Shown here: positions 36,001 to 64,000 of the stretch, one piece after another
How the letters are laid out: the number at the start of each line of letters is the position of its first letter
How positions within the stretch are numbered: the first letter of the stretch is position 1
Origin: Nemertoderma westbladi
Taxonomy: Eukaryota > Animalia > Xenacoelomorpha
Direction: 5' to 3'
NCBI GenBank assembly: GCA_032718475.1
Contig: JAUCBJ010007484.1
Coordinates: forward strand, 62,001 to 126,000
DNA: 64,000 bases
Made by a program: the position numbers and the translations under genes
Notes under the pieces: model-generated
The model's database searches: none
What the model was told of the DNA's origin: nothing
Seen by the model: the letters and a program-made list of their open reading frames with translations, nothing else

Positions 36001-39000
36001 ATTGTAGGATAGTATGTTTGAGTGTAGACTTTAGAACCATAACAGGGTGTATGATTGTAGGAAGTATGTTTGAGTGTAGACTTTAGAACCATAACAGGGT
36101 AAATGATTGTAGGATGTATGTTTGAGTGTAGACTTTAGAACCATAACAGGGTAAATGATTGTAGGAAGTATGTTTGAGTGTAGACTTTAGAACCATAACA
36201 GGGTGTATGATTGTAGGAAGTATGTTTGAGTGTAGACTTTAGAACCATAACAGGGTAAATGATTGTAGGATGTATGTTTGAGTGTAGACTTTAGAACCAT
36301 AACAAGGTAAATGATTGTAGGATGTATGTTTGAGTGTAGACTTTAGAACCATAACAGGGTGTATGATTGTAGGAAGTATGTTTGAGTGTAGACTTTAGAA
36401 CCATAACAGGGTAAATGATTGTAGGATGTATGTTTGAGTGTAGACTTTAGAACCATAACAAGGTAAATGATTGTAGGAAGTATGTTTGAGTGTAGACTTT
36501 AGAACCATAACAGGGTGTATGATTGTAGGAAGTATGTTTGAGTGTAGACTTTAGAACCATAACAGGGTAAATGATTGTAGGATGTATGTTTGAGTGTAGA
36601 CTTTAGAACCATAACAAGGTAAATGATTGTAGGAAGTATGTTTGAGTGTAGACTTTAGAACCATAACAGGGTGTATGATTGTAGGAAGTATGTTTGAGTG
36701 TAGACTTTAGAACCATAACAGGGTAAATGATTGTAGGATGTATGTTTGAGTGTAGACTTTAGAACCATAACAAGGTAAATGATTGTAGGATGTATGTTTG
36801 AGTGTAGACTTTAGAACCATAACAGGGTGTATGATTGTAGGAAGTATGTTTGAGTGTAGACTTTAGAACCATAACAGGGTAAATGATTGTAGGATGTATG
36901 TTTGAGTGTAGACTTTAGAACCATAACAGGGTAAATGATTGTAGGAAGTATGTTTGAGTGTAGACTTTAGAACCATAACAGGGTGTATGATTGTAGGATG
37001 TAGTATGTTTGAGTGTAGTCTTTAGAACCATAACAGGGTGTATGATTATAGGATGTATGTTTGAGTGTAGACTTTAGAACCATAACAGGGTGTATGATTG
37101 TAGGAAGTATGTTTGAGTGTAGACTTTAGAACCATAACAGGGTAAATGATTGTAGGAAGTATGTTTGAGTGTAGACTTTAGAACCATAACAGGATGTATG
37201 ATTGTAGGATGTATGTTTGAGTGTAGACTTTAGAACCATAACAGGGTGTATGATTGTAGGATAGTATGTTTGAGTGTAGACTTTAGAACCATAACAGGGT
37301 GTATGATTGTAGGATGTATGTTTGAGTGTAGACTTTAGAACCATAACAGGGTGTATGATTGTAGGATGTATGTTTGAGTGTAGACTTTAGAACCATAACA
37401 GGGTGTATGATTGTAGGATGTAGTGTTTGAGTGTAGACTTTAGAACCATAACAGGGTGTATGATTGTAGGATGTATGTTTGAGTGTAGACTTTAGAACCA
37501 TAACAGGGTGAATGATTGTAGGAAGTATGTTTGAGTGTAGACTTTAGAACCATAACAGGGTAAATGATTGTAGGAAGTATGTTTGAGTGTAGACTTTAGA
37601 ACCATAACAGGGTGTATGATTGTAGGATGTATGTTTGAGTGTAGACTTTAGAACCATAACAGGGTGAATGATTGTAGGAAGTATGTTTGAGTGTAGACTT
37701 TAGAACCATAACAAGGTAAATGATTGTAGGAAGTATGTTTGAGTGTAGACTTTAGAACCATAACAGGGTGAATGATTGTAGGAAGTATGTTTGAGTGTAG
37801 ACTTTAGAACCATAACAGGGTAAATGATTGTAGGAAGTATGTTTGAGTGTAGACTTTAGAACCATAACAGGGTGAATGATTGTAGGAAGTATGTTTGAGT
37901 GTAGACTTTAGAACCATAACAAGGTGAATGATTGTAGGAAGTATGTTTGAGTGTAGACTTTAGAACCATAACAAGGTGAATGATTGTAGGAAGTATGTTT
38001 GAGTGTAGACTTTAGAACCATAACAGGGTGAATGATTGTAGGATGTATGTTTGAGTGTAGACTTTAGAACCATAACAGGGTGTATGATTGTAGGAAGTAT
38101 GTTTGAGTGTAGACTTTAGAACCATAACAGGATTTATGATTGTAGGATGTATGTTTGAGTGTAGACTTTAGAACCATAACAGGGTGTATGATTGTAGGAA
38201 GTATGTTTGAGTGTAGACTTTAGAACCATAACAGGATGAATGATTGTAGGATGTATGTTTGAGTGTAGACTTTAGAACCATAACAGGGTAAATGATTGTA
38301 GGATGTATGTTTGAGTGTAGACTTTAGAACCATAACAGGGTGTATGATTGTAGGAAGTATGTTTGAGTGTAGACTTTAGAACCATAACAGGATGTATGAT
38401 TGTAGGATGTATGTTTGAGTGTAGACTTTAGAACCATAACAGGATGTATGATTGTAGGATGTATGTTTGAGTGTAGACTTTAGAACCATAACAAGGTAAA
38501 TGATTGTAGGAAGTATGTTTGAGTGTAGACTTTAGAACCATAACAGGGTGTATGATTGTAGATTGTAGGATGTATGTTTGAGTGTAGACTTTAGAACCAT
38601 AACAGGGTGTATGATTGTAGATTGTAGGATGTATGTTTGAGTGTAGACTTTAGAACCATAACAGGATGTATGATTGTAGGAAGTATGTTTGAGTGTAGAC
38701 TTTAGAACCATAACAGGATGTATGATTGTAGGAAGTATGTTTGAGTGTAGACTTTAGAACCATAACAGGGTGTATGATTGTAGATTGTAGGATGTATGTT
38801 TGAGTGTAGACTTTAGAACCATAACAGGATGTATGATTGTAGGAAGTATGTTTGAGTGTAGACTTTAGAACCATAACAGGGTGTATGATTGTAGATTGTA
38901 GGATGTATGTTTGAGTGTAGACTTTAGAACCATAACAGGATGTATGATTGTAGGAAGTATGTTTGAGTGTAGACTTTAGAACCATAACAGGATGAATGGT

Positions 39001-42000
39001 TGTAGGATGTATGTTAGAGTGTAGACTTTAGAACCATAACAAGGTAAATGATTGTAGGAAGTATGTTTGAGTGTAGACTTTAGAACCATAACAGGATGTA
39101 TGATTGTAGGATGTATGTTTGAGTGTAGACTTTAGAACCATAACAAGGTAAATGATTGTAGGAAGTATGTTTGAGTGTAGACTTTAGAACCATAACAGGA
39201 TGTATGATTGTAGGATGTATGTTTGAGTGTAGACTTTAGAACCATAACAGGGTAAATGATTGTAGGAAGTATGTTTGAGTGTAGACTTTAGAACCATAAC
39301 AAGGTAAATGATTGTAGGAAGTATGTTTGAGTGTAGACTTTAGAACCATAACAAGGTAAATGATTGTAGGAAGTATGTTTGAGTGTAGACTTTAGAACCA
39401 TAACAGGATGTATGATTGTAGGATGTATGTTTGAGTGTAGACTTTAGAACCATAACAAGGTAAATGATTGTAGGAAGTATGTTTGAGTGTAGACTTTAGA
39501 ACCATAACAGGATGTATGATTGTAGGATGTATGTTTGAGTGTAGACTTTAGAACCATAACAGGATGTATGATTGTAGGATGTATGTTTGAGTGTAGACTT
39601 TAGAACCATAACAAGGTAAATGATTGTAGGAAGTATGTTTGAGTGTAGACTTTAGAACCATAACAGGATGTATGATTGTAGGATGTATGTTTGAGTGTAG
39701 ACTTTAGAACCATAACAGGGTGTATGATTGTAGATTGTAGGATGTATGTTTGAGTGTAGACTTTAGAACCATAACAGGGTGAATGATTGTAGGATGTATG
39801 TTTGAGTGTAGACTTTAGAACCATAACAGGGTGTATGATTGTAGATTGTAGGATGTATGTTTGAGTGTAGACTTTAGAACCATAACAGGGTGAATGATTG
39901 TAGGATGTATGTTTGAGTGTAGACTTTAGAACCATAACAGGATGTATGATTGTAGGATGTATGTTTGAGTGTAGACTTTAGAACCATAACAAGGTAAATG
40001 ATTGTAGGAAGTATGTTTGAGTGTAGACTTTAGAACCATAACAGGGTGAATGATTGTAGGATGTATGTTTGAGTGTAGACTTTAGAACCATAACAGGGTG
40101 AATGATTGTAGGATGTATGTTTGAGTGTAGACTTTAGAACCATAACAGGGTGTATGATTGTAGGATGTATGTTTGAGTGTAGACTTTAGAACCATAACAG
40201 GGTGTATGATTGTAGATTGTAGGATGTATGTTTGAGTGTAGACTTTAGAACCATAACAGGGTGAATGATTGTAGGATGTATGTTTGAGTGTAGACTTTAG
40301 AACCATAACAGGGTGAATGATTGTAGGATGTATGTTTGAGTGTAGACTTTAGAACCATAACAGGGTGTATGATTGTAGGATGTATGTTTGAGTGTAGACT
40401 TTAGAACCATAACAGGGTGTATGATTGTAGATTGTAGGATGTATGTTTGAGTGTAGACTTTAGAACCATAACAGGGTGAATGATTGTAGGATGTATGTTT
40501 GAGTGTAGACTTTAGAACCATAACAGGATGTATGATTGTAGGATGTATGTTTGAGTGTAGACTTTAGAACCATAACAAGGTAAATGATTGTAGGAAGTAT
40601 GTTTGAGTGTAGACTTTAGAACCATAACAGGATGAATGATTGTAGGATGTATGTTTGAGTGTAGACTTTAGAACCATAACAGGATGTATGATTGTAGGAT
40701 GTATGTTTGAGTGTAGACTTTAGAACCATAACAAGGTAAATGATTGTAGGAAGTATGTTTGAGTGTAGACTTTAGAACCATAACAGGATGTATGATTGTA
40801 GGATGTATGTTTGAGTGTAGACTTTAGAACCATAACAAGGTAAATGATTGTAGGAAGTATGTTTGAGTGTAGACTTTAGAACCATAACAGGATGTATGAT
40901 TGTAGGATGTATGTTTGAGTGTAGACTTTAGAACCATAACAGGGTGAATGATTGTAGGATGTATGTTTGAGTGTAGACTTTAGAACCATAACAGGGTGAA
41001 TGATTGTAGGATGTATGTTTGAGTGTAGACTTTAGAACCATAACAGGGTGTATGATTGTAGGAAGTATGTTTGAGTGTAGACTTTAGAACCATAACAGGA
41101 TGTATGATTGTAGGATGTATGTTTGAGTGTAGACTTTAGAACCATAACAAGGTAAATGATTGTAGGAAGTATGTTTGAGTGTAGACTTTAGAACCATAAC
41201 AGGATGTATGATTGTAGGATGTATGTTTGAGTGTAGACTTTAGAACCATAACAAGGTAAATGATTGTAGGAAGTATGTTTGAGTGTAGACTTTAGAACCA
41301 TAACAGGATGTATGATTGTAGGATGTATGTTTGAGTGTAGACTTTAGAACCATAACAGGGTGAATGATTGTAGGATGTATGTTTGAGTGTAGACTTTAGA
41401 ACCATAACAGGGTGTATGATTGTAGGAAGTATGTTTGAGTGTAGACTTTAGAACCATAACAGGATGTATGATTGTAGGATGTATGTTTGAGTGTAGACTT
41501 TAGAACCATAACAGGATGTATGATTGTAGGATGTATGTTTGAGTGTAGACTTTAGAACCATAACTGGGTGTATGACTGTAGGATGTATGTTTGAGTGTAG
41601 ACTTTAGAACCATAACAGGGTGTATGATTGTAGGATGTAGTATGTTTGAGTGTAGACTTTAGAACCATAACAGGGTGTATGATTGTAGGATGTATGTTTG
41701 AGTGTAGTCTTTAGAACCATAACAGGATGTATGATTGTAGGATGTATGTTTGAGTGTAGACTTTAGAACCATAACAGGGTGTATGATTGTAGGATGTATG
41801 TTTGAGTGTAGACTTTAGAACCATAACAGGGTGAATGATTGTAGGATGTATGTTTGAGTGTAGTCTTTAGAACCATAACAGGGTGTATGATTGCAGATTA
41901 TAGGATGTATGTTTGAGTGTAGACTTTAGAACCATAACAGGGTGTATGATTGTAGGATGTATGTTTGAGTGTAGACTTTAGAACCATAACAGGGTGTATG

Positions 42001-43759
42001 ATTGCAGATTATAGGATGTATGTTTGAGTGTAGACTTTAGAACCATAACAGGGTGTATGATTGTAGATTGTAGGATGTATGTTTGAGTGTAGACTTTATA
42101 ACCATAACAGGGTGTATGATTGTAGGATGTAGTATGTTTGAGTGTAGACTTTAGAACCATAACAGGATGTATGATTGTAGATTGTAGGATGTATGTTTGA
42201 GTGTAGACTTTAGAACCATAACAGGGTGTATGATTGTAGGAAGTATGTTTGAGTGTAGACTTTATAACCATAACAGGGTGTATGATTGTAGGATGTAGTA
42301 TGTTTGAGTGTAGACTTTAGAACCATAACAGGGTGTATGATTGTAGGATGTATGTTTGAGTGTAGACTTTAGAACCATAACAGGGTGTATGATTGCAGAT
42401 TATAGGATGTATGTTTGAGTGTAGACTTTAGAACCATAACAGGGTGTATGATTGTAGATTGTAGGATGTATGTTTGAGTGTAGACTTTATAACCATAACA
42501 GGGTGTATGATTGTAGGATGTAGTATGTTTGAGTGTAGACTTTAGAACCATAACAGGATGTATGATTGTAGATTGTAGGATGTATGTTTGAGTGTAGACT
42601 TTAGAACCATAACAGGATGTATGATTGTAGATTGTAGGATGTATGTTTGAGTGTAGACTTTATAACCATAACAGGGTGTATGATTGTAGGATGTAGTATG
42701 TTTGAGTGTAGACTTTAGAACCATAACAGGATGTATGATTGTAGATTGTAGGATGTATGTTTGAGTGTAGACTTTAGAACCATAACAGGGTGTATGATTG
42801 TAGGAAGTATGTTTGAGTGTAGACTTTAGAACCATAACAGGGTGTATGATTGTAGGATGTATGTTTGAGTGTAGACTTTAGAACCATAACAGGGTGTATG
42901 ATTGTAGGATGTATGTTTGAGTGTAGACTTTAGAACCATAACAGGGTGTATGATTGCAGATTATAGGATGTATGTTTGAGTGTAGACTTTAGAACCATAA
43001 CAGGGTGTATGATTGTAGGATGTAGTATGTTTGAGTGTAGACTTTAGAACCATAACAGGATGTATGATTGTAGATTGTAGGATGTATGTTTGAGTGTAGA
43101 CTTTAGAACCATAACAGGGTGTATGATTGTAGGATGTAGTATGTTTGAGTGTAGACTTTAGAACCATAACAGGATGTATGATTGTAGATTGTAGGATGTA
43201 TGTTTGAGTGTAGACTTTAGAACCATAACAGGGTGTATGATTGTAGATTGTAGGATGTATGTTTGAGTGTAGACTTTAGAACCATAACAGGGTGTATGAT
43301 TGTAGATTGTAGGATGTATGTTTGAGTGTAGACTTTAGAACCATAACAGGGTGTATGATTGTCGATTGTAGGATGTATGTTTGAGTGTAGACTTTAGAAC
43401 CATAACAGGGTGTATGATTGTCGATTGTAGGATGTATGTTTGAGTGTAGACTTTAGAACCATAACAGGGTGTATGATTATAGGATGTATGTTTGAGTGTA
43501 GACTTTAGAACCATAACAGGGTGTATGATTGTAGGATGTATGTTTGAGTGTAGACTTTAGAACCATAACAGGGTGTATGATTGTAGATTGTAGGATGTAT
43601 GTTTGAGTGTAGACTTTAGAACCATAACAGGGTGTATGATTGTAGATTGTAGGATGTATGTTTGAGTGTAGACTTTAGAACCATAACAGGGTGTATGATT
43701 ATAGGATGTATGTTTGAGTGTAGACTTTAGAACCATAACAGGATGAATGGTTGTAGGAT
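1..43759. repeat. 52-bp tandem satellite array, block 1 (continues beyond the left edge)
   Basis: Head-to-tail monomer GACTTTAGAACCATAACAGGGTGTATGATTGTAGGATGTATGTTTGAGTGTA (52 bp; 15 G vs 4 C on +; no CpG). Recurrent variants: +GTA (55 bp), +GATTGTA (59 bp), GGG/GGA, TGTAT/TGAAT, GGATG/GGAAG, TAGAC/TAGTC, AAGGTAAA. Confidence 0.99.
43749..43759 (+). repeat. 11-bp target-site duplication GGTTGTAGGAT (partner 44458-44468; also 47468-47478/48548-48558)
   Basis: Present on both sides of each insertion and only once at the matching empty site (38998-39008). Confidence 0.93.
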
Positions 43760-43948
43760 CAGAACAGAACAGCCTGGGCCAGGCATTACGGGGTTACAGT
43801 GGTTTCTACAACACTGTATAATAGTTATTCTTTGAGGCATGGTTGCCATTTCTGGCAGAGCACGGGAATAACGAACGAACTTGTACTTTCCTTTGAGTGA
43901 TTAGTTGGCCTAAATATGATCTCCCACTCCACAGCGAAATATTCATCC

Positions 43949-44045
43949 GGTCTGGTAGCTCAGTACAGTCACCCGGCTGATGATAACCAGAAGTTTGAAA
44001 CCTAGGTACCGGGTTCGAGCCCCAATAGGGCCGGTTGATATTTTT
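43949..44045 (+). promoter_or_regulatory. tRNA-like internal Pol III promoter (A box, B box) with T5 terminator, enclosing the hammerhead; repeated in all five units (+371, +3719, +4090, +4461)
   Basis: A-box-like TAGCTCAGT (43956-43964); B box GGTTCGAGCCC (44012-44022); acceptor-like stem GGTCTGG (43949-43955)/TAGGGCC (44026-44032) at tRNA spacing; TTTTT at 44041-44045. Confidence 0.62.
43971..44014 (+). ncRNA. Type I hammerhead ribozyme, copy 1
   Basis: Stem I ACCCGG/CCGGGT; core CTGATGA (43977-43983); stem II AAC/GTT with loop CAGAA and a U-U closing mismatch; GAAA (43997-44000); palindromic stem III ACCTAGGT; GTA triplet with predicted cleavage after 44008. Confidence 0.88.
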
Positions 44046-44341
44046 CGCTATGGAGAGCATTATCATATTGTCCTATCTACATTATATATTTAATTCACCG
44101 TCACTCACCCCACAACAATTCATTTATTATTATTAATTAACAGCCTGGGCCAGGCATTACGGGGTTACAGTGGTTTCTACAACACTGTATAATAGTTATT
44201 CTTTGAGGCATGGTTGCCATTTCTGGCAGAGCACGGGAATAACGAACGAACTTGTACTTTCCTTTGAGTGATTAGTTGGCCTAAATATGATCTCCCACTC
44301 CACAGCGAAATATTCATCCGGTCTGGTAGCTCAGTACAGTC

Positions 44342-44385
44342 ACCCGGCTGATGATAACCAGAAGTTTGAAACCTAGGTACCGGGT
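44342..44385 (+). ncRNA. Type I hammerhead ribozyme, copy 2
   Basis: Same sequence as copy 1 (ACCCGGCTGATGATAACCAGAAGTTTGAAACCTAGGTACCGGGT), offset +371. Confidence 0.88.
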
Positions 44386-44457
44386 TCGAGCCCCAATAGG
44401 GCCGGTTGATATTTTTCGCTATGGAGAGCATTATCATATTGTCCTATCTACATTATA

Positions 44458-47400
44458 GGTTGTAGGATGTATGTTAGAGTGTAGGCTTTAGAACCATAAC
44501 AAGGTAAATGATTGTAGGAAGTATGTTTGAGTGTAGACTTTAGAACCATAACAGGATGTATGATTGTAGGATGTATGTTTGAGTGTAGACTTTAGAACCA
44601 TAACAGGGTGTATGATTGTAGGATGTATGTTAGAGTGTAGACTTTAGAACCATAACAGGGTGTATGATTGTAGGATGTAGTATGTTTGAGTGTAGACTTT
44701 AGAACCATAACAGGGTGTATGATTGTAGGAAGTATGTTTGAGTGTAGACTTTAGAACCATAACAGGGTGTATGATTGTAGGATGTAGTATGTTTGAGTGT
44801 AGTCTTTAGAACCATAACAGGGTGTATGATTGTAGGATGTATGTTTGAGTGTAGACTTTAGAACCATAACAAGGTAAATGATTGTAGGAAGTATGTTTGA
44901 GTGTAGACTTTAGAACCATAACAGGATGTATGATTGTAGGATGTATGTTTGAGTGTAGACTTTAGAACCATAACAGGATGTATGATTGTAGGATGTATGT
45001 TTGAGTGTAGACTTTAGAACCATAACAAGGTAAATGATTGTAGGAAGTATGTTTGAGTGTAGACTTTAGAACCATAACAGGATGTATGATTGTAGGATGT
45101 ATGTTTGAGTGTAGACTTTAGAACCATAACAAGGTAAATGATTGTAGGAAGTATGTTTGAGTGTAGACTTTAGAACCATAACAGGATGTATGATTGTAGG
45201 ATGTATGTTTGAGTGTAGACTTTAGAACCATAACAAGGTAAATGATTGTAGGAAGTATGTTTGAGTGTAGACTTTAGAACCATAACAGGATGTATGATTG
45301 TAGGATGTATGTTTGAGTGTAGACTTTAGAACCATAACAGGGTGAATGATTGTAGGATGTATGTTTGAGTGTAGACTTTAGAACCATAACAGGGTGTATG
45401 ATTGTAGGAAGTATGTTTGAGTGTAGACTTTAGAACCATAACAGGATGTATGATTGTAGGATGTATGTTTGAGTGTAGACTTTAGAACCATAACAGGATG
45501 TATGATTGTAGGATGTATGTTTGAGTGTAGACTTTAGAACCATAACAGGATGTATGATTGTAGGATGTATGTTTGAGTGTAGACTTTAGAACCATAACAA
45601 GGTAAATGATTGTAGGAAGTATGTTTGAGTGTAGACTTTAGAACCATAACAGGATGTATGATTGTAGGATGTATGTTTGAGTGTAGACTTTAGAACCATA
45701 ACAAGGTAAATGATTGTAGGAAGTATGTTTGAGTGTAGACTTTAGAACCATAACAGGATGTATGATTGTAGGATGTATGTTTGAGTGTAGACTTTAGAAC
45801 CATAACAGGGTGAATGATTGTAGGATGTATGTTTGAGTGTAGACTTTAGAACCATAACAGGGTGTATGATTGTAGGAAGTATGTTTGAGTGTAGACTTTA
45901 GAACCATAACAGGATGTATGATTGTAGGATGTATGTTTGAGTGTAGACTTTAGAACCATAACAGGATGTATGATTGTAGGATGTATGTTTGAGTGTAGAC
46001 TTTAGAACCATAACTGGGTGTATGACTGTAGGATGTATGTTTGAGTGTAGACTTTAGAACCATAACAGGGTGTATGATTGTAGGATGTAGTATGTTTGAG
46101 TGTAGACTTTAGAACCATAACAGGGTGTATGATTGTAGGATGTATGTTTGAGTGTAGTCTTTAGAACCATAACAGGATGTATGATTGTAGGATGTATGTT
46201 TGAGTGTAGACTTTAGAACCATAACAGGGTGTATGATTGTAGGATGTATGTTTGAGTGTAGACTTTAGAACCATAACAGGGTGTATGATTGTAGGATGTA
46301 TGTTTGAGTGTAGTCTTTAGAACCATAACAGGATGTATGATTGTAGGATGTATGTTTGAGTGTAGACTTTAGAACCATAACAGGGTGTATGATTGTAGGA
46401 TGTATGTTTGAGTGTAGACTTTAGAACCATAACAGGGTGTATGATTGTAGGATGTATGTTTGAGTGTAGACTTTAGAACCATAACAGGGTGTATGATTGC
46501 AGATTATAGGATGTATGTTTGAGTGTAGACTTTAGAACCATAACAGGGTGTATGATTGTAGGATGTAGTATGTTTGAGTGTAGACTTTAGAACCATAACA
46601 GGGTGTATGATTGTAGATTGTAGGATGTAGTATGTTTGAGTGTAGACTTTAGAACCATAACAGGGTGTATGATTGTAGGATGTAGTATGTTTGAGTGTAG
46701 ACTTTAGAACCATAACAGGATGTATGATTGTAGATTGTAGGATGTATGTTTGAGTGTAGACTTTAGAACCATAACAGGGTGTATGATTGTAGGATGTAGT
46801 ATGTTTGAGTGTAGACTTTAGAACCATAACAGGATGTATGATTGTAGATTGTAGGATGTATGTTTGAGTGTAGACTTTAGAACCATAACAGGGTGTATGA
46901 TTGTAGATTGTAGGAAGTATGTTTGAGTGTAGACTTTAGAACCATAACAGGGTGTATGATTGTAGATTGTAGGATGTATGTTTGAGTGTAGACTTTAGAA
47001 CCATAACAGGGTGTATGATTGTAGATTGTAGGATGTATGTTTGAGTGTAGACTTTAGAACCATAACAGGGTGTATGATTGTCGATTGTAGGATGTATGTT
47101 TGAGTGTAGACTTTAGAACCATAACAGGGTGTATGATTGTCGATTGTAGGATGTATGTTTGAGTGTAGACTTTAGAACCATAACAGGGTGTATGATTATA
47201 GGATGTATGTTTGAGTGTAGACTTTAGAACCATAACAGGGTGTATGATTGTAGGATGTATGTTTGAGTGTAGACTTTAGAACCATAACAGGGTGTATGAT
47301 TGTAGATTGTAGGATGTATGTTTGAGTGTAGACTTTAGAACCATAACAGGGTGTATGATTGTAGATTGTAGGATGTATGTTTGAGTGTAGACTTTAGAAC

Positions 47401-47478
47401 CATAACAGGGTGTATGATTATAGGATGTATGTTTGAGTGTAGACTTTAGAACCATAACAGGATGAATGGTTGTAGGAT
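44458..47478. repeat. 52-bp satellite, block 2 (between the two insertions)
   Basis: Same monomer and orientation; resumes in register at the duplicated GGTTGTAGGAT. Confidence 0.99.
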
Positions 47479-47689
47479 CAGAACAGAACAGCCTGGGCCA
47501 GGCATTACGGGGTTACAGTGGTTTCTACAACACTGTATAATAGTTATTCTTTGAGGCATGGTTGCCATTTCTGGCAGAGCACGGGAATAACGAACGAACT
47601 TGTACTTTCCTTTGAGTGATTAGTTGGCCTAAATATGATCTCCCACTCCACAGCGAAATATTCATCCGGTCTGGTAGCTCAGTACAGTC

Positions 47690-47733
47690 ACCCGGCTGAT
47701 GATAACCAGAAGTTTGAAACCTAGGTACCGGGT
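47690..47733 (+). ncRNA. Type I hammerhead ribozyme, copy 3
   Basis: Same sequence as copy 1, offset +3719. Confidence 0.88.
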
Positions 47734-48060
47734 TCGAGCCCCAATAGGGCCGGTTGATATTTTTCGCTATGGAGAGCATTATCATATTGTCCTATCTACA
47801 TTATATATTTAATTCACCGTCACTCACCCCACAACAATTCATTTATTATTATTAATTAACAGCCTGGGCCAGGCATTACGGGGTTACAGTGGTTTCTACA
47901 ACACTGTATAATAGTTATTCTTTGAGGCATGGTTGCCATTTCTGGCAGAGCACGGGAATAACGAACGAACTTGTACTTTCCTTTGAGTGATTAGTTGGCC
48001 TAAATATGATCTCCCACTCCACAGCGAAATATTCATCCGGTCTGGTAGCTCAGTACAGTC

Positions 48061-48104
48061 ACCCGGCTGATGATAACCAGAAGTTTGAAACCTAGGTACC
48101 GGGT
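48061..48104 (+). ncRNA. Type I hammerhead ribozyme, copy 4
   Basis: Same sequence as copy 1, offset +4090. Confidence 0.88.
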
Positions 48105-48431
48105 TCGAGCCCCAATAGGGCCGGTTGATATTTTTCGCTATGGAGAGCATTATCATATTGTCCTATCTACATTATATATTTAATTCACCGTCACTCACCC
48201 CACAACAATTCATTTATTATTATTAATTAACAGCCTGGGCCAGGCATTACGGGGTTACAGTGGTTTCTACAACACTGTATAATAGTTATTCTTTGAGGCA
48301 TGGTTGCCATTTCTGGCAGAGCACGGGAATAACGAACGAACTTGTACTTTCCTTTGAGTGATTAGTTGGCCTAAATATGATCTCCCACTCCACAGCGAAA
48401 TATTCATCCGGTCTGGTAGCTCAGTACAGTC

Positions 48432-48475
48432 ACCCGGCTGATGATAACCAGAAGTTTGAAACCTAGGTACCGGGT
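48432..48475 (+). ncRNA. Type I hammerhead ribozyme, copy 5
   Basis: Same sequence as copy 1, offset +4461. Confidence 0.88.
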
Positions 48476-48547
48476 TCGAGCCCCAATAGGGCCGGTTGAT
48501 ATTTTTCGCTATGGAGAGCATTATCATATTGTCCTATCTACATTATA

Positions 48548-51500
48548 GGTTGTAGGATGTATGTTAGAGTGTAGGCTTTAGAACCATAACAAGGTAAATG
48601 ATTGTAGGAAGTATGTTTGAGTGTAGACTTTAGAACCATAACAGGATGTATGATTGTAGGATGTATGTTTGAGTGTAGACTTTAGAACCATAACAGGATG
48701 TATGATTGTAGGATGTATGTTTGAGTGTAGACTTTAGAACCATAACAAGGTAAATGATTGTAGGAAGTATGTTTGAGTGTAGACTTTAGAACCATAACAG
48801 GATGTATGATTGTAGGATGTATGTTTGAGTGTAGACTTTAGAACCATAACAGGATGTATGATTGTAGGATGTATGTTTGAGTGTAGACTTTAGAACCATA
48901 ACAAGGTAAATGATTGTAGGAAGTATGTTTGAGTGTAGACTTTAGAACCATAACAGGATGTATGATTGTAGGAAGTATGTTTGAGTGTAGACTTTAGAAC
49001 CATAACAAGGTAAATGATTGTAGGAAGTATGTTTGAGTGTAGACTTTAGAACCATAACAGGATGTATGATTGTAGGATGTATGTTTGAGTGTAGACTTTA
49101 GAACCATAACAGGATGTATGATTGTAGGATGTATGTTTGAGTGTAGACTTTAGAACCATAACAAGGTAAATGATTGTAGGAAGTATGTTTGAGTGTAGAC
49201 TTTAGAACCATAACAGGATGTATGATTGTAGGATGTATGTTTGAGTGTAGACTTTAGAACCATAACAAGGTAAATGATTGTAGGAAGTATGTTTGAGTGT
49301 AGACTTTAGAACCATAACAGGGTGTATGATTGTAGGATGTATGTTTGAGTGTAGACTTTAGAACCATAACAGGATGTATGATTGTAGGAAGTATGTTTGA
49401 GTGTAGACTTTAGAACCATAACAGGATGTATGATTGTAGGAAGTATGTTTGAGTGTAGACTTTAGAACCATAACAGGATGAATGATTGTAGGAAGTATGT
49501 TTGAGTGTAGACTTTAGAACCATAACAGGATGTATGATTGTAGGAAGTATGTTTGAGTGTAGACTTTAGAACCATAACAGGGTAAATGATTGTAGGATGT
49601 ATGTTTGAGTGTAGACTTTAGAACCATAACAGGGTGTATGATTGTAGGATGTATGTTTGAGTGTAGACTTTAGAACCATAACAGGGTGTATGATTGTAGG
49701 ATGTAGTATGTTTGAGTGTAGACTTTAGAACCATAACAGGGTGTATGATTGTAGGAAGTATGTTTGAGTGTAGACTTTAGAACCATAACAGGATGTATGA
49801 TTGTAGGAAGTATGTTTGAGTGTAGACTTTAGAACCATAACAGGATGAATGATTGTAGGAAGTATGTTTGAGTGTAGACTTTAGAACCATAACAGGATGT
49901 ATGATTGTAGGAAGTATGTTTGAGTGTAGACTTTAGAACCATAACAGGATGTATGATTGTAGGAAGTATGTTTGAGTGTAGACTTTAGAACCATAACAGG
50001 GTGTATGATTGTAGATTGTAGGATGTATGTTTGAGTGTAGTCTTTAGAACCATAACAGGATGTATGATTGTAGGAAGTATGTTTGAGTGTAGACTTTAGA
50101 ACCATAACAGGGTGTATGATTGTAGATTGTAGGATGTATGTTTGAGTGTAGTCTTTAGAACCATAACAGGGTGTATGATTGTAGGATGTATGTTTGAGTG
50201 TAGACTTTAGAACCATAACAGGATGTATGATTGTAGGAAGTATGTTTGAGTGTAGACTTTAGAACCATAACAGGATGTATGATTGTAGGAAGTATGTTTG
50301 AGTGTAGACTTTAGAACCATAACAGGATGTATGATTGTAGGAAGTATGTTTGAGTGTAGACTTTAGAACCATAACAGGGTAAATGATTGTAGGATGTATG
50401 TTTGAGTGTAGACTTTAGAACCATAACAGGGTGTATGATTGTAGATTGTAGAATGTATGTTTGAGTGTAGACTTTAGAACCATAACAGGGTGTATGATTG
50501 TAGGATGTAGTATGTTTGAGTGTAGACTTTAGAACCATAACAGGGTGTATGATTGTAGATTGTAGGATGTATGTTTGAGTGTAGACTTTAGAACCATAAC
50601 AGGGTGTATGATTGTAGGATGTATGTTTGAGTGTAGACATTAGAACCATAACAGGGTGTATGATTGTAGATTGTAGGATGTATGTTTGAGTGTAGACTTT
50701 AGAACCATAACAGGGTGTATGATTGTAGGATGTATGTTTGAGTGTAGTCTTTAGAACCATAACAGGGTGTATGATTGTAGATTGTAGAATGTATGTTTGA
50801 GTGTAGACTTTAGAACCATAACAGGGTGTATGATTGTAGGATGTAGTATGTTTGAGTGTAGACTTTAGAACCATAACAGGGTGTATGATTGTAGATTGTA
50901 GGATGTATGTTTGAGTGTAGACTTTAGAACCATAACAGGGTGTATGATTGTAGGATGTATGTTTGAGTGTAGACATTAGAACCATAACAGGGTGTATGAT
51001 TGTAGATTGTAGGATGTATGTTTGAGTGTAGACTTTAGAACCATAACAGGGTAAATGATTGTAGGATGTATGTTTGAGTGTAGACTTTAGAACCATACCA
51101 GGGTGTATGATTGTAGGATGTATGTTTGAGTGTAGACTTTAGAACCATAACAGGGTGTATGATTGTAGATTGTAGGATGTATGTTTGAGTGTAGTCTTTA
51201 GAACCATAACAGGGTGTATGATTGTAGATTGTAGGATGTATGTTTGAGTGTAGACTTTAGAACCATAACAGGGTAAATGATTGTAGGATGTATGTTTGAG
51301 TGTAGACTTTAGAACCATACCAGGGTGTATGATTGTAGGATGTATGTTTGAGTGTAGACTTTAGAACCATAACAGGGTGTATGATTGTAGGATGTAGTAT
51401 GTTTGAGTGTAGACTTTAGAACCATAACAGGGTGTATGATTGTAGGATGTATGTTTGAGTGTAGACTTTAGAACCATAACAGGGTGTATGATTGTAGATT

Positions 51501-55707: not shown

Positions 55708-56397
55708 TGTAAGAGCGGTTGCTATGCTCTTGTGTATAAAACAATAAGATGATCTATGTGATTGTAATATGTTCAACTATAGTTGGATTTCACCCAGTTT
55801 ACACGGTTACGTCCCATAAAGAAGAATAATTTGTTTATTTGATTGGGAATTAGGAGCATATTTATTATAGAAAATATATAAGATAATAATATACGATTAT
55901 AAGCGGTAAGGGGTAATAAGATAACGGAAACATAAGAACATTAATACATAATAAGAGATCTAATAATATAAACGTAAAATATCGTAAGAGTCAAGAATAC
56001 AAAGTAATAAAGAGTGTTAATAGGGGGAGTTTCCGTTTGGGAAACTGCGGAAATGAGACCAACTATAGTGAATGAGTAATGTTGAGCTCAGTAAGTTGTA
56101 GAAATACAGTGAAGTAATAATAGGGGTGACAGTGTGGTGGGCCTTGATTGGTTAATGGGTAATAAGGGATTGTAGCGCAGTGGAGATACCTACCTAATAT
56201 GGCTGAACAGGAGTGAAGGGAAGAATACAGCTGTTTATCTGTATAGGATAAACGGCTGTGAATGGGGGCAGCCACTAATGGTCGAATGAGTATATTGGAG
56301 ATGAGATAGATATTGGTTTGCAACAATAAGCTGGGAGAATGGGCGGTAATGTAATGATAATATATTTTTTATTGTTTGAGAGAGACCCGCCACTACA
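55708..56397 (-). repeat. 3' LTR of the BEL/Pao element (690 bp)
   Basis: Begins TGTAAGAGCGG at the satellite breakpoint and ends CCGCCACTACA (imperfect terminal inverted repeat, 8/11). Directly abuts a polypurine tract. The second LTR is not in the window, so the boundaries are inferred. Confidence 0.82.
55834..55866 (-). promoter_or_regulatory. Candidate polyadenylation signals in the LTR
   Basis: Two minus-strand AATAAA (55834-55839, 55861-55866), about 130-160 nt from the LTR 3' end; the AT-rich context lowers specificity. Confidence 0.4.
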
Positions 56398-56406
56398 GTC
56401 CCCCTT
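56398..56406 (-). other. Polypurine tract (plus-strand primer)
   Basis: Minus strand reads AAGGGGGAC immediately before TGTAGTGG of the LTR. Confidence 0.75.
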
Positions 56407-56575
56407 AAAAATTTTCAAATTTTTACACGATATCTGGGCTTCCTCAAAACATCTTAAAAATTTCAAATAATCGAAGGAACATCTTGTCCCACTCAAATAA
56501 TATTAATCTATGGCCTTTATATTTTACCTCGGTGGACGAACAGGACGTACAAAACAACGATTACACACAGGACAT

Positions 56576-56740
56576 ACATTTAAAAGTATGGGTAAACCAT
56601 ACGAATGACAGATAAACATAAAGGATACATATATGACGTACATTTAAAAGTATGGTGTTGCCATACGAGTGAAACAGACGTACAGAAGACAACACATATA
56701 ACACAGAGGACAAACATTTAAAAGTATGGATATACCATAC
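56576..56740. repeat. Three copies of ACATTTAAAA-GTATGG-N5-CCATAC hairpin motif in the retrotransposon 3' UTR
   Basis: Copies at 56576-56602 (loop GTAAA), 56640-56666 (TGTTG) and 56714-56740 (ATATA). Confidence 0.85.
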
Positions 56741-57398
56741 AAAGGAGATAAGAAGCTCCTTGGTATCTAAAGGGTCATTGAAGGTCAAAGATTAACATTA
56801 TTAATACAATACTTAAGGAAGGTAATTTGTTCAGTAATGTATTTGACGAAGTTAAGATACGTGTAATATCCAAATAATGTATCGTCAATTTTGTAAAATT
56901 AAGTTAAAATTGTTTATAATATATCTCATCTTAAGGACACTATGTAAATAGGAAACGATAAACAATTATGACACAATGATTTAGGATTATAGATTAGGTT
57001 GTTAGGAGTGTGGTGATAGATTAGTTAGAGTAACTACTATAAGGTGAATAAATTCAAAATACTTATGAATTACACCACTACATTACATTGTTTACAATGT
57101 ACCCTGTAAACTCGACCATCACCAATTGACACGGTTAATACTTAATAATATCTTTACCAATGGATCTCTAGTTATAATTTTATAGTTTGTTGCTTATAGT
57201 TCCATTTAACCGAGTTCAATATGCATCCTTCAGTGGTAGTCAACTAAGATGTGGACGACCATCACATCATACCCAGGAATTTTGGTAGCTAAAACCTAAA
57301 AGGAAATTAAGGGAAATTATTTAATATTTGATAAGTATACAAAGTATGCTGGTTTATTAGTTAATTTAATTATAATTAATTTTAGTAGTAGTTTATTG

Positions 57399-60300
57399 TT
57401 ACTTATTTATTTTCTCTAAGAGGCATAGTTTATCAAGTGGTCTTTTGTAAACTCCCAAGGAGGTTTTTACTTCAACTGATCTAATTAACCCCACATCATC
57501 AGGGTATACTTGCGTTATACGACCCACACTCCAACTACTGCGTGTTTGACCTTCATCTACAAGCAATACGACATCGCCTACTGCAAGGTTGTTGCGAACA
57601 CGTGTCCACTTCTGTCTTGATTGAAGTGTCACTAAGTATTCGCGTACCCAGCGGGTCCAAAAATGATTGGCTAGTAACTGAGCCTGGCGCCATTTACGAG
57701 TTGAGTATGTATCACTGTCGTAGATGGGACCTGGTGGTAAATTGTAAGCAGGGTGCTGTAATAGAAGGTGGTTCGGAGTTAATATTTCATCAGCTTTAGG
57801 GTCATCGGTACTAAGGCACAAGGGGCGGCTGTTTAGAATGCACTCTACTTCTGCTAATGATGTCACTAACACGTCATCTGTGACAAGAGAATTTCCAAGG
57901 ACCTGAAACAGAACTTGTTTGATTGAACGGATCAGCCGTTCATATACACCACCCATATGGGGGGCGTACGGTGTTATAAATTTCCATGTAATGCCCTTTG
58001 GGCGCAGGGCAATATCGATCTGATGTTCCCATAGTTCCAGGTTTTGCCGTAATTCTGAATCGGCACCTACGAAGTTTCCCCCATTGTCTGAAACTATTTC
58101 CTTTGGCGAACCTCTCCGTGCTTTAAAACGGGAGAACACATTGATAAAGGCATCAGCTGATGCATCAGCAGCTACATCGAGGTGTACTGCTCTACAGTTA
58201 AGGCACGTAAAGATAAAGGCATAACGCTTTATAGAACCTCTCCCGTATTTGACCTTTAGTGGACCAAACATATCAACGGCTGAAAACGTAAATGGCGGCT
58301 CATATGGGGTCAGTCTAGAGGACGGCAATGGCGCCATAAGCTGATTCACACGTGGAGCCTTACATTGCCGACATTTAAAGCACTTACGTATTAAAGACTT
58401 GCAGAAAGTGATAAGGCCAGGGATCCAATAGGATTCCCTTACCTTGGCAACTACTTGGTTGGGACCGGCATGTAATAAATAGATGTGCCAGTGCCATACT
58501 ATGACATTTGTAAGTGGGTGTAACTTACTCAAAATTATAGGGTGTTTTGTATCGTAGGATACTGGGGTGGAGGTAATGCGGCCACCTACCCGCAATAAAC
58601 CATCCTGAGTTAGGATTGGCGCTAGATTAGCTAGTGGGCTTGAGCAAGCTACTGGGGATGAATGCAGTAACATTTGAATTTCGTTGGGATAGGATTGCCT
58701 CTGTGAGAAATAAATTAGACATCGTCCAGCATGGTGACGTTCACTTACCGAGACAAATTTCCCTTTAAGATTTAAGACCGAATTTGGATTTAAAGAATAC
58801 TTGCAAAGACGTAAGATCCATGCGAACAGAGTCTGTAATTTATTCCATGACGAATGTTTAGCTATAAGTGAACCTATAGCATTAAATGCTGTGTTAGAAT
58901 CAATGTGGACATTAAGAATTATTTCAGTGTCAGGATTGTGGTATGGTGTCTGTTCTTCGACAACTATGTCAAACCAGAAGTCTGTCATGGTGATGTCATC
59001 GTTATAATCAATATCAGATGATACCAATATATGAGAAGTTAACACATCTGGGTTATTGATTAGTGTATTAGTGATAGTTTCTGGGCATATGGTTGACACT
59101 GTCGTCCATGTTTCCTCAGGCTGAACGAGAAAAGGAGGCCCATGCCACCACTTCTGTGAATTAATGAGCTTGACTGCTGTAAGCCCACGAGTAATGTCAT
59201 CTGCAGGGTTTAAATGACCAGGTACATGTTGCCATTGTGAACTGGTTGTACGATCAAGGATATACTTAGCGCGGTTGTGAACAAAACATCGAAATTGCTT
59301 GACGGTGTTGTTTATGTACCCAAGTACGACAGTAGAGTCTGTCCAAAAATAACATTTAGCGATTGGTAAGTCTAGGGATTCTAACACAGTTTCACTTACC
59401 TGTGCTGCTAAAACTGCAGCTTGGAGCTCTAATCGAGGAACTGAATGTCCAGAGGCTGTACGAACTAACTTACCTTTGCTGAAAACGAAAGATGAATTTA
59501 TTTCATTTTCACTTACAGATCGGATGTACAATACTGTACCGTAGGCCACTTTAGAAGCGTCTGAGAAAATATGTAGCTGGTAGTTGATTGGACCCGAATG
59601 GACGGGGATGTACATCCTAGGGATTTCCAGTTCGCTGAGCATAGGAAGTTGATCTCGCCACTTCATCCATTGACGTGCTGTATCTGGTGGGAGTGGGGTA
59701 TCCCAGTCTAATTCCATTGACCACATTTTTGCTATAACTAATCGACCTGCTATGATTAAAGGCAAGATAAAGTTAATGGGATCGTACAATGAGCTAGTCA
59801 AAGAGACGCATCCCCGTTTAGTTAATGGTGTGTTTTTAAGCACATAGGAGAATATGAAGTTATCTGAATTTGTGTCCCAGGAAACTCCAAGGGCACGGGT
59901 TATAGGAAGATTATCAAAATCTAAGTTAATGAAGGATTTTGCCTTTTCTGAATCGGGAAAGGCATCTAGGAATTGTCTAGAATTGGAGGCAAATTTTGTG
60001 AGGTGAAAGCCACCTAATTTGAGGCAATCTACCATCCCAGAAGCGATGTGAATAGCTTCGGAGACAGATGCTGCACTTTTGAGGCCATCATCCACATACA
60101 TGTGGCGATTAATGGCATCAATCACCTCCGGGCTAAAATGACTGGCATTATCAATAGCAGTTCGTTTGACTGATCCTGATGCCACAAAGGATGAATCGCA
60201 TGCACCAAATATATGTACTAACATTTGGTAAGTCTCCACTGTGGTAGAGCCATCGGGCTGCCACAAAAAGCGAAGACTATCGGCATCGCCTGGTGTGACT

Positions 60301-60518
60301 CTCACCTGGTGGTACATTTCCTTTATGTCGCAGGTGAAAGCCACAGGATATTGTCGAAAACGCAAAATAATTCCAATAAGGCTACTGGTGAGATTAGGAC
60401 CTTCTAACAATTGACTATTGAGGGACATCCCTCGGTATAAGGCAGCAGCATCATTTACGATCCTTATCTCACCAGGCTTGTTGGGATTCTCAACAAAATG
60501 ATGGGCGAGGTAATATGT
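57399..60518 (-). CDS. pol: BEL/Pao Pol: reverse transcriptase, RNase H, integrase (track ORF 57399-60428; frame is open up to the TAG at 60519-60521)
   Basis: RT: [43 protein letters not shown], YVDD. RNase H: [31 protein letters not shown]. Integrase: H-X4-H...CFKC, [25 protein letters not shown]. C-terminal [10 protein letters not shown]...LAVGDVVLL typical of Pao elements. Confidence 0.95.
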   Translation of the reverse strand, partial: [1039 protein letters not shown]

Positions 60519-63500
60519 CTATGGCCCTGGGGTTATCTCACATGGTAGGAGTTTGCGAGCATAACCCTTCAAGACATAATCGTCTATTTTTTGTTGATAA
60601 AGGGCATGGATATGTGGCTTACGATGTAGCTGACGGATTAAATATGCGAAACGGGATTTTGCCATATTATAATTATTAATTAATAATGGAGGTGAGTCCC
60701 TCCAGAGCATTCCTACCTGATAGTGACCATCCACTAGACGTATTGACTTAGAAAACATTTCTAATGCTTTTAAGTCATCCATGGATGGTGATAGAAACTC
60801 ATCGATGAGGGGTGAGGGTTTTGGGTCTGAAGGTGAACTTTCAGCAAAACTCTGAAATTTCATCCATTGAGTGACCTGTTTAGAGATGTCGCGGTCTGTG
60901 CAAGGGTCATTGACTGTGATGTGATTAAACTGTGTTACTGTACTATTGGGTTCAACTGCTTTACAGCTCACAGGACCGATTATGCACCATCCAAATGGTG
61001 TCCTAATTGCAGAGGGATTAGGGTTCCCAGCCTTTGGGAATACATGTACATCCCTAGCTAGGGCCTCAGGATGGTTACCACCAACCAGAATTGTGATTGA
61101 TGGGATATCAAGATTAGGGCAGCATGTCACATATGGCAATATGTGATCTAAGTGCTGGAGCGTTTTAGGACACAGTTGTGTTACATCATATGAGTAATCC
61201 CTTTTGAAATCGGGGACTACAAATACTTGAGGCATGTTGATGACAAAATTGGGTTTAATTTCTGGCTGTCCTTTGATAGGTGAGATACTACATGATATTT
61301 CCCCAGGAGAAACAGACATATTTGATTGGAAGACAGTGCTGACATTAAGAGAAGTAGTTTCGGGAATGATACCAAGAGTATCGGTTACATTTTTGTCAAC
61401 AAATGTCGCAGTAGACCCATCATCAAGAAGTGCATATGTAGTGAGTGATTTATTGGCAATGCATATGGTTACTGGGACTACTGATAACCATACGGGTTGT
61501 ACTTTGGCAATTGATAAGTGTACAGACATGGAATTGTTTGAACTTTGTGCGCTGATGTTGCCACCTTTAGATTTTGGTCGGTCGGTGTGGCTACCAGAGC
61601 TCTCACTACTCGCAGGGTCCTTGACACTCTGTTTAGATTTATTGGAATCGGAAGCCTTTGAAAATACATACGCACCATGGAATAAGGTATTGTGTTTTCC
61701 TTTGCAATCGGGAGCAAAACACACATCAACAGATTTGCAGTCCGGAATAAGATGTGAATTTGCAAAACATCGAAAGCACAACTGGTATGAACGTACGCAG
61801 TTTAACCGTTCTTGTGGTGTAAGATTTAGAAAGGTTTTGCATTGACTGATTTTATGCCCATGTTGTTTACAGCATGGGCAGGGGTGGGATTTTAACACTT
61901 TGGGATTATTACCGACCCCTGAAGTAACTGGGATATGTACTTCAGTGGCCAAGGTTGTAACCTTTGGGCGAGGCTCAAATGAGCCACGGTCAACTATACT
62001 ATAAACAGGGTCATTTATAATATCGGCTTCATTGTCAAGGAAGTCCGCAAGCTCATTGAGAGTGGGTTCCCTTTGAGAACGAGCACGAATACCGTGAGCA
62101 ACTCGACGCCATCTTGCAAGATGCTCAGTTGGTAGGTTAGAGGCAAGTTGTTTGAGGTTCGAGGTAGCATTCATTTCATGACTGTTGCTTAAGTGCTGAA
62201 GAACGGTAACCTTACTTCTTACCTTATCAGCATAGTCACGAAGTTTTTCCCTTTTTATTCCAAAAGATCCATTTAAATCTACAGAAGAGACGAGATCTCT
62301 TAGTGTAGCTTCAATGATTACACTAGGGTGACCATAACGTTTATGCAAGGTCTCCCAAGCCTTAGTGTAACCATTTGAAAGTCCTTCATAAGCCTCAACT
62401 AGCTCATGAGGTTTGCCAGACGTGTATTGTAAAAGGTACTGCAATTTTTCCACATCAGAAAAATCACGTAAGTCGATATGAGCCTTAAAGGTAGCCACAA
62501 AAGATATATACTTAGCTGAATCACCACTCAATTTTGTAGGTTCAGGGCGTGGCAAGGATAGCTTAGTATTTAATTTGCCTAAGGCATCTAGGGTGTGAGA
62601 GAGACCAGAATCTTGTAAGGCAAAATCTGATGGTGCACCATTGTGTGGGTTGGATAATGGGGACCCTCCAAAATAGACACCACTTGTTACTATAGTGGGG
62701 TCACCTGCAATGGAAATAGAAGATCTATCATTAGGGTTCATGGATGTAATACTCGATAGTGCAGAAATAGGAGCATTTCTATCGAAATATACTGGACCAT
62801 TGTGTCCCCCCATGGCAAATTGTACATGATTTGAATTAGGAGCATTTACTGCAGACTGACCAACAGAGATTGAACTAGCAGTTACAGATGCTACGGGATT
62901 ACATAAAAATCCAGGAGTCTCACTGTATTGATACTGTAGGCCAGTGGTACTATATGGGAAATATTGTCCCTCGTCATATAAGTTTTGTCCCCCCATGGTA
63001 AATGATGGGACGTGAGATATATTATGGGTATTGTATCGCGCAGAAGAGGCAAACTTGGGGTGCCTCTCTCGTGCAGATTGTCCCGGAACATTGCTGGGAC
63101 ATGATGGGACACTTTGACCTATGGGGTGGGAAGGGTGGGGGAATTTTCCCCCTATGGGGCATGTTGAAACATATATAGATGGACATGTAAGGCTATTTAC
63201 ATCAAGAGATGTAAATGCCACAGGCTCCTCTTGACTATATTGTTCCCGGCTGGTAGTAAGATAGGATGGGACATATTGTCCTCCAGAAGTATAGGATGAA
63301 TAAATGCATTGTCCGGCCGAGGAACTTCTTGGATATCTTTGAGAATACTGACTTAAGGAAGATGCAGTATTAAAAAGCGATGTTGGGGGTATAAAGAGAC
63401 CAGTTGTACAAAAATTACCTAGTGGGATAATTTCAGAAACTCTACTATTAATTAGCGCACTAGTAGGTCTTATAGGAGAAGTAAGAGAAAAAATTGGAAG

Positions 63501-63998: not shown

Positions 63999-64000
63999 AC

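Follow-up and report, generated by a model that had tools for sequence, protein, structure and literature searches.

The window examined here is the whole 64,000-nucleotide stretch of Nemertoderma westbladi contig JAUCBJ010007484.1 (positions 62,001 to 126,000). Positions 1–55703 are a satellite with a 52-bp period and ~1,043 copies, and our subject is a repeated 371-bp unit that interrupts this satellite at two places, inserts A and B. Each unit core is a type I hammerhead ribozyme motif lying between A box-like and B box-like motifs in a transfer RNA (tRNA)-like frame. The satellite, the inserts and their target-site duplications are as follows.

1–55703, no strand assigned: host satellite, with 52-, 55- and 59-bp monomer variants (period analysis and monomer parsing)
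38971–39022, plus strand: empty satellite monomer, with a single copy of the 11-mer at 38998 and no insert (variant comparison)
43749–43759, plus strand: left target-site duplication of insert A, 11 bp, GGTTGTAGGAT (sequence)
43760–43767, plus strand: 8-base leader outside the unit, repeating the element's first five bases (unit boundary)
43768–44457 (from 43760 with the leader), plus strand: insert A, 1.86 units (sequence comparison)
44458–44468, plus strand: right target-site duplication of insert A (sequence)
47468–47478, plus strand: left target-site duplication of insert B (sequence)
47479–48547, plus strand: insert B, an 8-base leader as in A, then 2.86 units (sequence comparison)
48548–48558, plus strand: right target-site duplication of insert B (sequence)

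Hammerhead cores occur at 43977, 44348, 47696, 48067 and 48438, with a unit period of 371 bp, and the unit copies are identical wherever they overlap. Alignment and a reading-frame scan bear out the period, the identity and the non-coding character described in an earlier, sequence-only reading of this DNA; a trimer of the unit has no stop-free stretch longer than 44 codons on the plus strand or 88 on the minus strand. That reading had also placed five copies in one tandem bounded by an 11-bp duplication. The five cores are there, but they are divided between two inserts of 1.86 and 2.86 units, ~3 kb of satellite apart and each with its own pair of 11-mers, and only three of the five copies are full length in the phase that had been chosen. 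An origin of all five copies in a single event is ruled out by the two inserts (two and three cores) at this distance with their duplicated junctions. The duplication itself is exact: GGTTGTAGGAT flanks the insertion, and the empty site lies at 38998.

Phased on its 3′ end, insert A consists of one 5′-shortened unit followed by one full unit. The 8-base leader is likely the product of reverse-transcriptase slippage at the 5′ junction, and after it the 371-bp unit runs in register from 43768. Insert B has identical junctions, stops at the same base and is one unit longer. Because the two inserts carry the same exact 11-bp direct repeat, each as its own pair, and have identical junctions and near-identical flanks, they represent one insertion that was later duplicated with ~3.7 kb of satellite, the two copies then coming to differ by one unit. 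The flanks of A and B are identical over 562 bases upstream and 150 bases downstream, and alignment of 600 upstream bases gives 2 mismatches and no gaps, compared with 12–25 mismatches and 56–90 gap positions for eight random satellite blocks. The empty monomer at 38971–39022 has the same rare variants as the monomer interrupted by the insert. Satellite monomers fall into ~90 variants (988 monomers parsed) arranged as local higher-order blocks, which makes duplications such as the A/B block traceable. An assembly artefact appears an unlikely source of the duplication, since the monomer strings flanking A and B differ beyond 600 bases. The insertion is young-looking.

The features of the unit are given below for its first copy in insert A.

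43913–44069, plus strand: 30-nt inverted repeat, 43913–43942 with 44040–44069, 77% complementary (sequence)
43949–44032, plus strand: tRNA-like frame, with an acceptor-like stem of 43949–43955 with 44026–44032, 6 of 7 pairs (ARAGORN, profile scoring)
43956–43964, plus strand: A box-like motif TAGCTCAGT, tRNA positions 8–16 (profile score)
43971–44014, plus strand: type I hammerhead (motif reading, Rfam, folding)
44012–44022, plus strand: B box-like motif GGTTCGAGCCC (profile score)
44041–44045, plus strand: run of five T (T5), a possible RNA polymerase III (Pol III) terminator, also paired in the enclosing stem (sequence)
44087–44138, plus strand: AT-rich spacer of 52 bases ending in TTA repeats (sequence)

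The hammerhead has all of its core bases in all five copies: stem I pairs 43971–43976 with 44009–44014 (6 bp), CUGAUGA occupies 43977–43983 and GAAA 43997–44000. The core had been called complete, which is accurate for the bases but less so for the stems. Stem II (43985–43987 with 43993–43995) has 3 bp over a U·U pair at its base, and stem III is a palindrome (44000–44007) of 2 pairs and a palindromic 4-base loop that in folding forms no hairpin alone; between copies it gives an 8-bp duplex of -11.4 kcal/mol. Cleavage is predicted after GUA at 44008, and in the other copies after 44379, 47727, 48098 and 48469; the two cut positions proposed earlier, after 44008 and 44379, are thus correct for the motif. 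The Rfam search suggested at that time returns Hammerhead_HH9 as the best match (E 0.048 in 821 bases, E 0.0065 in 111 bases), but at 19.7 bits it falls under the gathering score of 52, and no Rfam match in the whole window reaches its gathering score.

The unit has a G+C fraction (GC) of 0.42, and its monomer is self-paired (z -3.3). The 30-nt inverted repeat is present in every unit and encloses the tRNA/hammerhead domain, and the 52-base spacer is confined to positions between units, being missing at both insert ends. Reading of the unit, with no tool search, revealed no signals of the long terminal repeat (LTR), primer-binding site (PBS) or polypurine tract (PPT) type, and the rest of the unit has no Rfam match to a second ribozyme or known RNA at E 10. 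Several short hairpins, also with no Rfam match, occur in its 5′ part (43772–43900), and a second A box-like motif without a B box partner is found at 43853.

The tRNA-like frame around the hammerhead was absent from the sequence-only reading. Its further copies begin at 44320, 47668, 48039 and 48410. The acceptor-like stem is in exact register to the B box. The hammerhead core lies close to where a tRNA has its anticodon loop, and cleavage is predicted just after tRNA position 48; the B box begins 3 bases past the cut and overlaps stem I. The A box scores 10.3 bits, as compared with 6.5 ± 5.6 for 47 real prokaryotic tRNAs, and the B box scores 9.6 bits, below their 15.3 ± 1.4. Those box profiles come from prokaryotic tRNAs that do not match the hammerhead and B box pattern discussed below, and the parent isotype cannot be named from them. 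When the hammerhead was held fixed and the rest of the unit shuffled, none of 100,000 shuffles reached the combined score of A box, acceptor stem and B box; A box plus acceptor stem was reached in 3 and the B box in 149. The 3′ half of the D arm is degenerate and 2–4 bases short. The T5 is the unit's only run of four or more T and lies 9 bases beyond the tRNA-like frame.

The unit, or part of it, is present in six of the nine sequencing runs listed, five of them from organism A. Aligning contigs to the unit at 80% likeness gave 1,323 contigs in X1, 1,114 in X3 and 136 in X4, all DNA runs of organism A and each from a different study; their heterogeneous flanks agree with the earlier expectation of other dispersed copies. 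A fourth organism A run has 780 contigs on a 116-base stretch of the unit, a comparison that speaks only for the middle of that stretch and misses some end variants found on the whole unit. Two short contigs of depth 3–4 from organism B (run X5, perhaps an RNA run) are not counted as expression or host range. Family copies are known here through contig tables, with variants unphased. The family is variable (40 of 43 variant rows at 3% were listed), and the listed variable positions within the 44-base hammerhead are 43981, 43984, 43989 and 43990, which correspond to N7, the U·U position and loop II. The listed variants spare the conserved core, stem I and stem III; the hammerhead stems are almost invariant in the family, one change making the U·U an A-U pair. 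Among the listed common variants none falls in the A box and one minor variant (44017) falls in the B box, whereas the D-arm remnant between them varies.

Loose ends of these contigs cluster at particular positions. The largest clusters (30 contigs in X1, 27 in X3; 21 of 420 rows listed) match the unit to ~44086–44088 and then diverge. This is where both window inserts stop, and the flanks beyond this shared 3′ end are different AT-rich sequences. A second 3′ cluster among the same listed rows lies near 44135–44138, and the main 5′ cluster, of 30 and 21 contigs, lies before 43970 (12 of 142 rows listed). Head-to-tail junctions of several unit variants are present in contigs. Joints between opposite strands make up 6 of the 15 joints listed (of 42), several coinciding with the unit's own inverted repeats. 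All five window copies have a family-rare allele at 43968, whose share of summed depth is ~4–5% in X1 and X2, 0.2–0.3% in X3 and 0 in X4. Repeated copying of a single template is consistent with such sharing, but so are a homogeneous donor array and subsequent homogenisation. One X4 contig, of 1,915 bases and depth 183, is unit-like only in its last 230 bases and may be a longer or autonomous relative.

Assignment to the non-LTR retrozymes, proposed in the sequence-only reading, is supported by the unit size, the GC of 0.42, the type I hammerhead, the tandems, the duplication of >4 bp and the dispersed family; what has to be changed is the single-event array, and the likely tRNA-type promoter that was overlooked has to be added. 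Non-LTR retrozymes have been described as tandem units of 150–450 bp with GC <50% and a target duplication >4 bp (PMC7229834), and 371 bp is within the 350–390 bp range given there for mussel retrozymes. Like the coral, mussel and axolotl retrozymes of that study, the unit has a type I hammerhead and a self-paired monomer and shows no LTR, PBS or PPT. It shares with axolotl HHR_Amex2 the U·U at the base of stem II and the 2-pair stem III with a tetraloop (PMC7229834); the HHR_Amex2 monomer was cleaved to 22%, the dimer better, and RtcB circularised axolotl and mussel retrozyme monomers in vitro (PMC7229834). Circles and cleavage have been demonstrated for those retrozymes and are predictions for the present unit. 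The unit may be identical with one of the families listed in PMC7229834.

Retrozymes seem to be without a promoter according to the accessible part of a 2020 review (PMC7761336), whereas our unit appears to have a tRNA-type internal promoter. This places it closer to Sm-alpha of Schistosoma, reported to have a Pol III promoter followed by a hammerhead, with single cut monomers said to become unable to propagate (PMC6765202), and an origin from tRNA-Gln (PMC2770079). In common with Sm-alpha and Sj-alpha, as far as those elements are described in the text available, the unit combines a tRNA-derived Pol III-type promoter and a type I hammerhead, and it too is repeated in tandem with a length of a few hundred bases. 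The core and cut lie between the boxes here, in tRNA register, whereas the promoter is upstream in Sm-alpha as described; in the Sm-alpha-related unit W27.2, both box-like motifs are upstream of the core by our own reading of the sequence (PMC8490949). Stem II is also weaker than in Sm-alpha and Sj-alpha. We conclude that the unit would work like Sm-alpha but is not a member of the Sm-alpha family.

Penelope-like elements offer a second comparison. Reports on them describe a full unit preceded by a shortened one, as well as multiple non-autonomous copies arranged head to tail (PMC8557442), retrozymes have been proposed to be non-autonomous Penelope-like derivatives (bioRxiv 10.64898/2026.07.22.740005) and the palindromic stem III arrangement has been described for metazoan hammerheads that work as dimers (PMC4209133). 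The insert resembles such non-autonomous elements, as portrayed in the accessible text, in its partial tandem with a shortened 5′ copy and its palindromic stem III (PMC4209133, PMC8557442), in its hammerhead near the 3′ end and in copies with a common 3′ end. By analogy with these partial tandems and head-to-tail derivatives, a Penelope-like partner is likely. Unlike the minimal Penelope hammerhead as described, which has a long stem II, the motif here has canonical dimensions, with a stem I of 6 bp and a stem III of 1–2 bp and a palindromic loop. The tRNA frame goes unmentioned in the available text on Penelope-like and pseudo-LTR hammerheads (PMC4209133, PMC8557442, bioRxiv 10.64898/2026.07.22.740005). 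Our literature search, with Repbase and Dfam outside its range, found, in the text available, no repeat of tRNA origin with a hammerhead lying between its A and B boxes, and the supplements of PMC7229834 and bioRxiv 10.64898/2026.07.22.740005 may list the family.

On this basis we hold, with moderate confidence, that the window contains one insertion of a high-copy 371-bp non-LTR retrozyme, likely transcribed by Pol III and likely mobilised by a Penelope-like element; the ribozyme of the unit sits between the A and B boxes. Self-cleavage and a 371-nt circle are predictions from the motif. In the life cycle that we propose, Pol III would start near 43949 from the A and B boxes and would sometimes read past the T5 into the next unit; transcription entering from outside promoters may contribute as well. 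Tandem hammerheads would then cleave behind GUA, with the palindromic stem III making dimers the readier form to cut, to free a 371-nt monomer beginning just before the B box and ending after the A box. Because the cut lies between the boxes, it would separate the promoter halves, and closure of the monomer by RtcB, as for other retrozymes, would restore the order A box–hammerhead–B box. A reverse transcriptase/endonuclease acting in trans would nick the target 11 bases apart, and copying would start at a preferred point ~78 bases downstream of the cut site. Copying crossed two cut sites, which implies a circle or an uncut multimer as the template. A copy of a cut linear monomer would carry the boxes in the order B–A and lack a functional promoter; only copies spanning the cut site would therefore be expected to found new active loci.

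A number of observations weigh against this reading. (i) ARAGORN calls the tRNA only at a lowered threshold, which also gives two probably false minus-strand calls per unit, and the Rfam tRNA model has no match in the unit at E 10; a weak call and a miss are as expected, because of the insertion and the decayed D arm. (ii) GCUC of the A box is able to pair with GAGC of the B box and so extend stem I. The two box scores are therefore not independent, and folding may be what preserves part of the B box. (iii) The T5, 33 bases past the cut site, could halt Pol III at ~95 nt. (iv) The lowest-energy fold of insert A is not an active hammerhead and has the core sequestered. The active fold, with the window allele, lies 20 kcal/mol above the minimum, whether as two monomers or as a double hammerhead; the gap is still 14 kcal/mol with the family majority allele at 43968, and the model dimer fold is no better than two monomers. 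These energies exclude tertiary contacts, and going by them the window copies may be an attenuated hammerhead variant. Eight of nine Xenopus retrozyme dimers are reported as uncleaved in vitro in the available text of bioRxiv 10.64898/2026.07.22.740005. (v) Acceptor-stem variants in the family are mixed, in that three keep the pair and one does so only if phased with another, and a change of 44031 from C to G, at 16–27% of depth, breaks a pair. (vi) Among the 12 of 142 loose-end rows listed, there is no cluster at 43949, the tRNA start, or at 44009, the cut site, and the main 5′ cluster before 43970 implies a sizeable class of hammerhead copies without this A box. (vii) No cleavage, circle or transcript has been observed and no autonomous partner has been seen, and the 11-bp duplication and TTA repeats fit a long interspersed element (LINE) as partner too.

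Several of these points are accommodated if the tRNA frame is a relic or scaffold and not a promoter, the unit being a Penelope-derived retrozyme that captured a tRNA-derived piece and is transcribed by read-through. We think this unlikely, though far from negligible, and the same applies to its corollary that the unit is a pseudo-LTR plus the 52-base remnant. The T5 directly behind the tRNA-like frame, the degenerate and short D-arm half, the B box scoring under real prokaryotic tRNAs and the many copies that start near 43970, none of the listed rows clustering at 43949, would all follow; retrozymes seem promoterless in the portion of PMC7761336 available, and the 1,915-base X4 contig could be a longer parent. 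On the other side, the A box is free of listed common variants and the B box has one minor one (44017), while the D-arm remnant varies. Sm-alpha, moreover, is reported to make multimeric transcripts by Pol III (PMC6765202).

The question of the partner leads to the next alternative. Insertions driven by LINEs commonly show features such as an 11-bp duplication, an AT-rich 3′ sequence with TTA repeats and a preferred 3′ end. The unit could accordingly be a tRNA-derived short interspersed element (SINE), mobilised by a LINE from linear uncut multimers, with a hammerhead that trims or limits transcripts and with circles as no intermediate. The same reading would account for copying that does not begin at the ribozyme cut, and the weak predicted fold would leave multimers uncut. 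Against it, the insert is tailless, starts elsewhere than at the 5′ end of the tRNA, where a classical tRNA SINE would begin, and is longer than one unit; the rare 43968 allele is common to all units, and circles are reported for coral, mussel and axolotl retrozymes (PMC7229834). We regard it as quite improbable. It is very improbable indeed that the hammerhead is inactive or that the repeat spreads only as DNA, by satellite-type amplification with a DNA-level insertion: the A/B duplication and the change from two to three units are DNA-level events and the active fold is disfavoured, more so with the window allele, but the clean target duplication with its empty site, the family variants that spare the core and the heterogeneous flanks past a shared 3′ end all speak against it.

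Within the preferred reading of a Pol III-type retrozyme, a separate question is how the hammerhead came to lie in a tRNA frame. The likeness of the hammerhead CUGA turn to the anticodon loop has long been noted (bioRxiv 10.1101/2022.01.19.477025). The hammerhead could have been born inside a tRNA gene, with the anticodon loop becoming the CUGANGA core, a variable-loop triplet the cut site and a short insertion stem II, and with the anticodon and T stems re-paired as stem I. We consider such a birth rather unlikely. The favoured route is that a tRNA-derived repeat captured a retrozyme hammerhead that already existed, by way of the shared CUGA and GUH motifs; the resemblance to HH9 and HHR_Amex2 points this way, as do the copies that lack this A box. 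Were the birth reading true, the element would be self-transcribing and self-cutting with its promoter present only across the ligated junction, circular or multimeric RNA would be obligatory and the tRNA-like frame may help to recruit the tRNA ligase RtcB.

We searched viral contigs, metagenome contigs and prokaryotic genomes, with little animal DNA among them, for a hammerhead core combined with a B box. At least 221 loci have this pattern (1 in viral contigs, at least 120 in metagenome contigs and 100 in prokaryotic genomes). ARAGORN identifies 102 of the 221 loci listed as tRNA-Phe, and in these the core is the anticodon loop and the triplet is the end of the variable loop. Eukaryotic tRNA-Phe has that anticodon loop as well. 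Intron-containing tRNA-Phe genes resemble the unit in order and register: the A box comes first, then CUGANGA as the anticodon loop, an inserted stretch, GUH closing the variable loop and finally the T arm. Unlike the unit, these loci are prokaryotic tRNA genes that lack a hammerhead; what they illustrate is geometry rather than descent. In most pattern loci the A box lies 23–25 bases ahead of the core, and in the unit 21. A stem I of at least 5 pairs is possible in 11 of the 221 listed loci, none of which also has a stem II of 3 pairs; that these 11, mostly tRNA-Phe-like, have a 5–6 bp stem I by chance is a point in favour of birth. The unit matches none of the 221 listed loci by blastn at E 0.001, no second hammerhead-in-tRNA element is found among them, which has weak bearing on animals, and a 43-letter family pattern has no match in metagenome contigs.

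Some of the pattern loci deserve mention in their own right. Ten (L182:301-343, L042:1501-1546, L151, L018, L089, L094, L137, L052, L154 and L187) are archaeal-type intron-containing tRNA-Phe-like genes with all core motifs in order, a possible 6-bp stem I that runs between the anticodon and T stems, and a stem II of at most 2 pairs. Their hammerhead-like motifs are probably a by-product of tRNA geometry. Three others (L011:1501-1554, L030:1501-1554 and L106:301-359) are eukaryote-like repeat DNA in metagenome contigs, in which a minimal Penelope-type hammerhead is followed directly by a SINE-like B-box part but not preceded by an A box; in L011 the hammerhead region recurs upstream in inverted orientation. 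They possibly exemplify how hammerhead–SINE chimeras form. L029, L045 and L066 share a hammerhead-like core near the contig start. Its stem II, of G+C pairs, is strong, and it may be a type III motif lying where a repeated element ends. On a viral contig (L001:601-659, minus strand), a tRNA-like gene has a CUGAAGA loop followed by a long insertion.

Beyond the inserts, the satellite has a strong GC skew (~+0.58) and is abutted by a BEL/Pao LTR retrotransposon on the minus strand (55710–64000), with Peptidase_A17, DUF1759, DUF5641 and integrase zinc domains. Its 3′ LTR of ~690 bp is apparently at 55710–56398, adjoined by a polypurine tract; its long reading frame has one in-frame stop (60519–60521), and its 5′ end is outside the window. 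The named matches to its protein are only animal, at 38–43% identity, and come from corals, fish, echinoderms, molluscs and tunicates.

With animal retrozymes, the mode of transcription is one question, and the point at which reverse transcription begins on a circle or multimer is another. Without the split promoter and the preferred 3′ end, the present family would be one more retrozyme family. With them it is a compact test case, in which an internal Pol III-type promoter would be cut by the element's own ribozyme and the 3′ end lies away from the cut. Because hammerhead and tRNA overlie each other exactly, the likeness between the CUGA turn and the anticodon loop also becomes testable, either as descent or as in-register capture.

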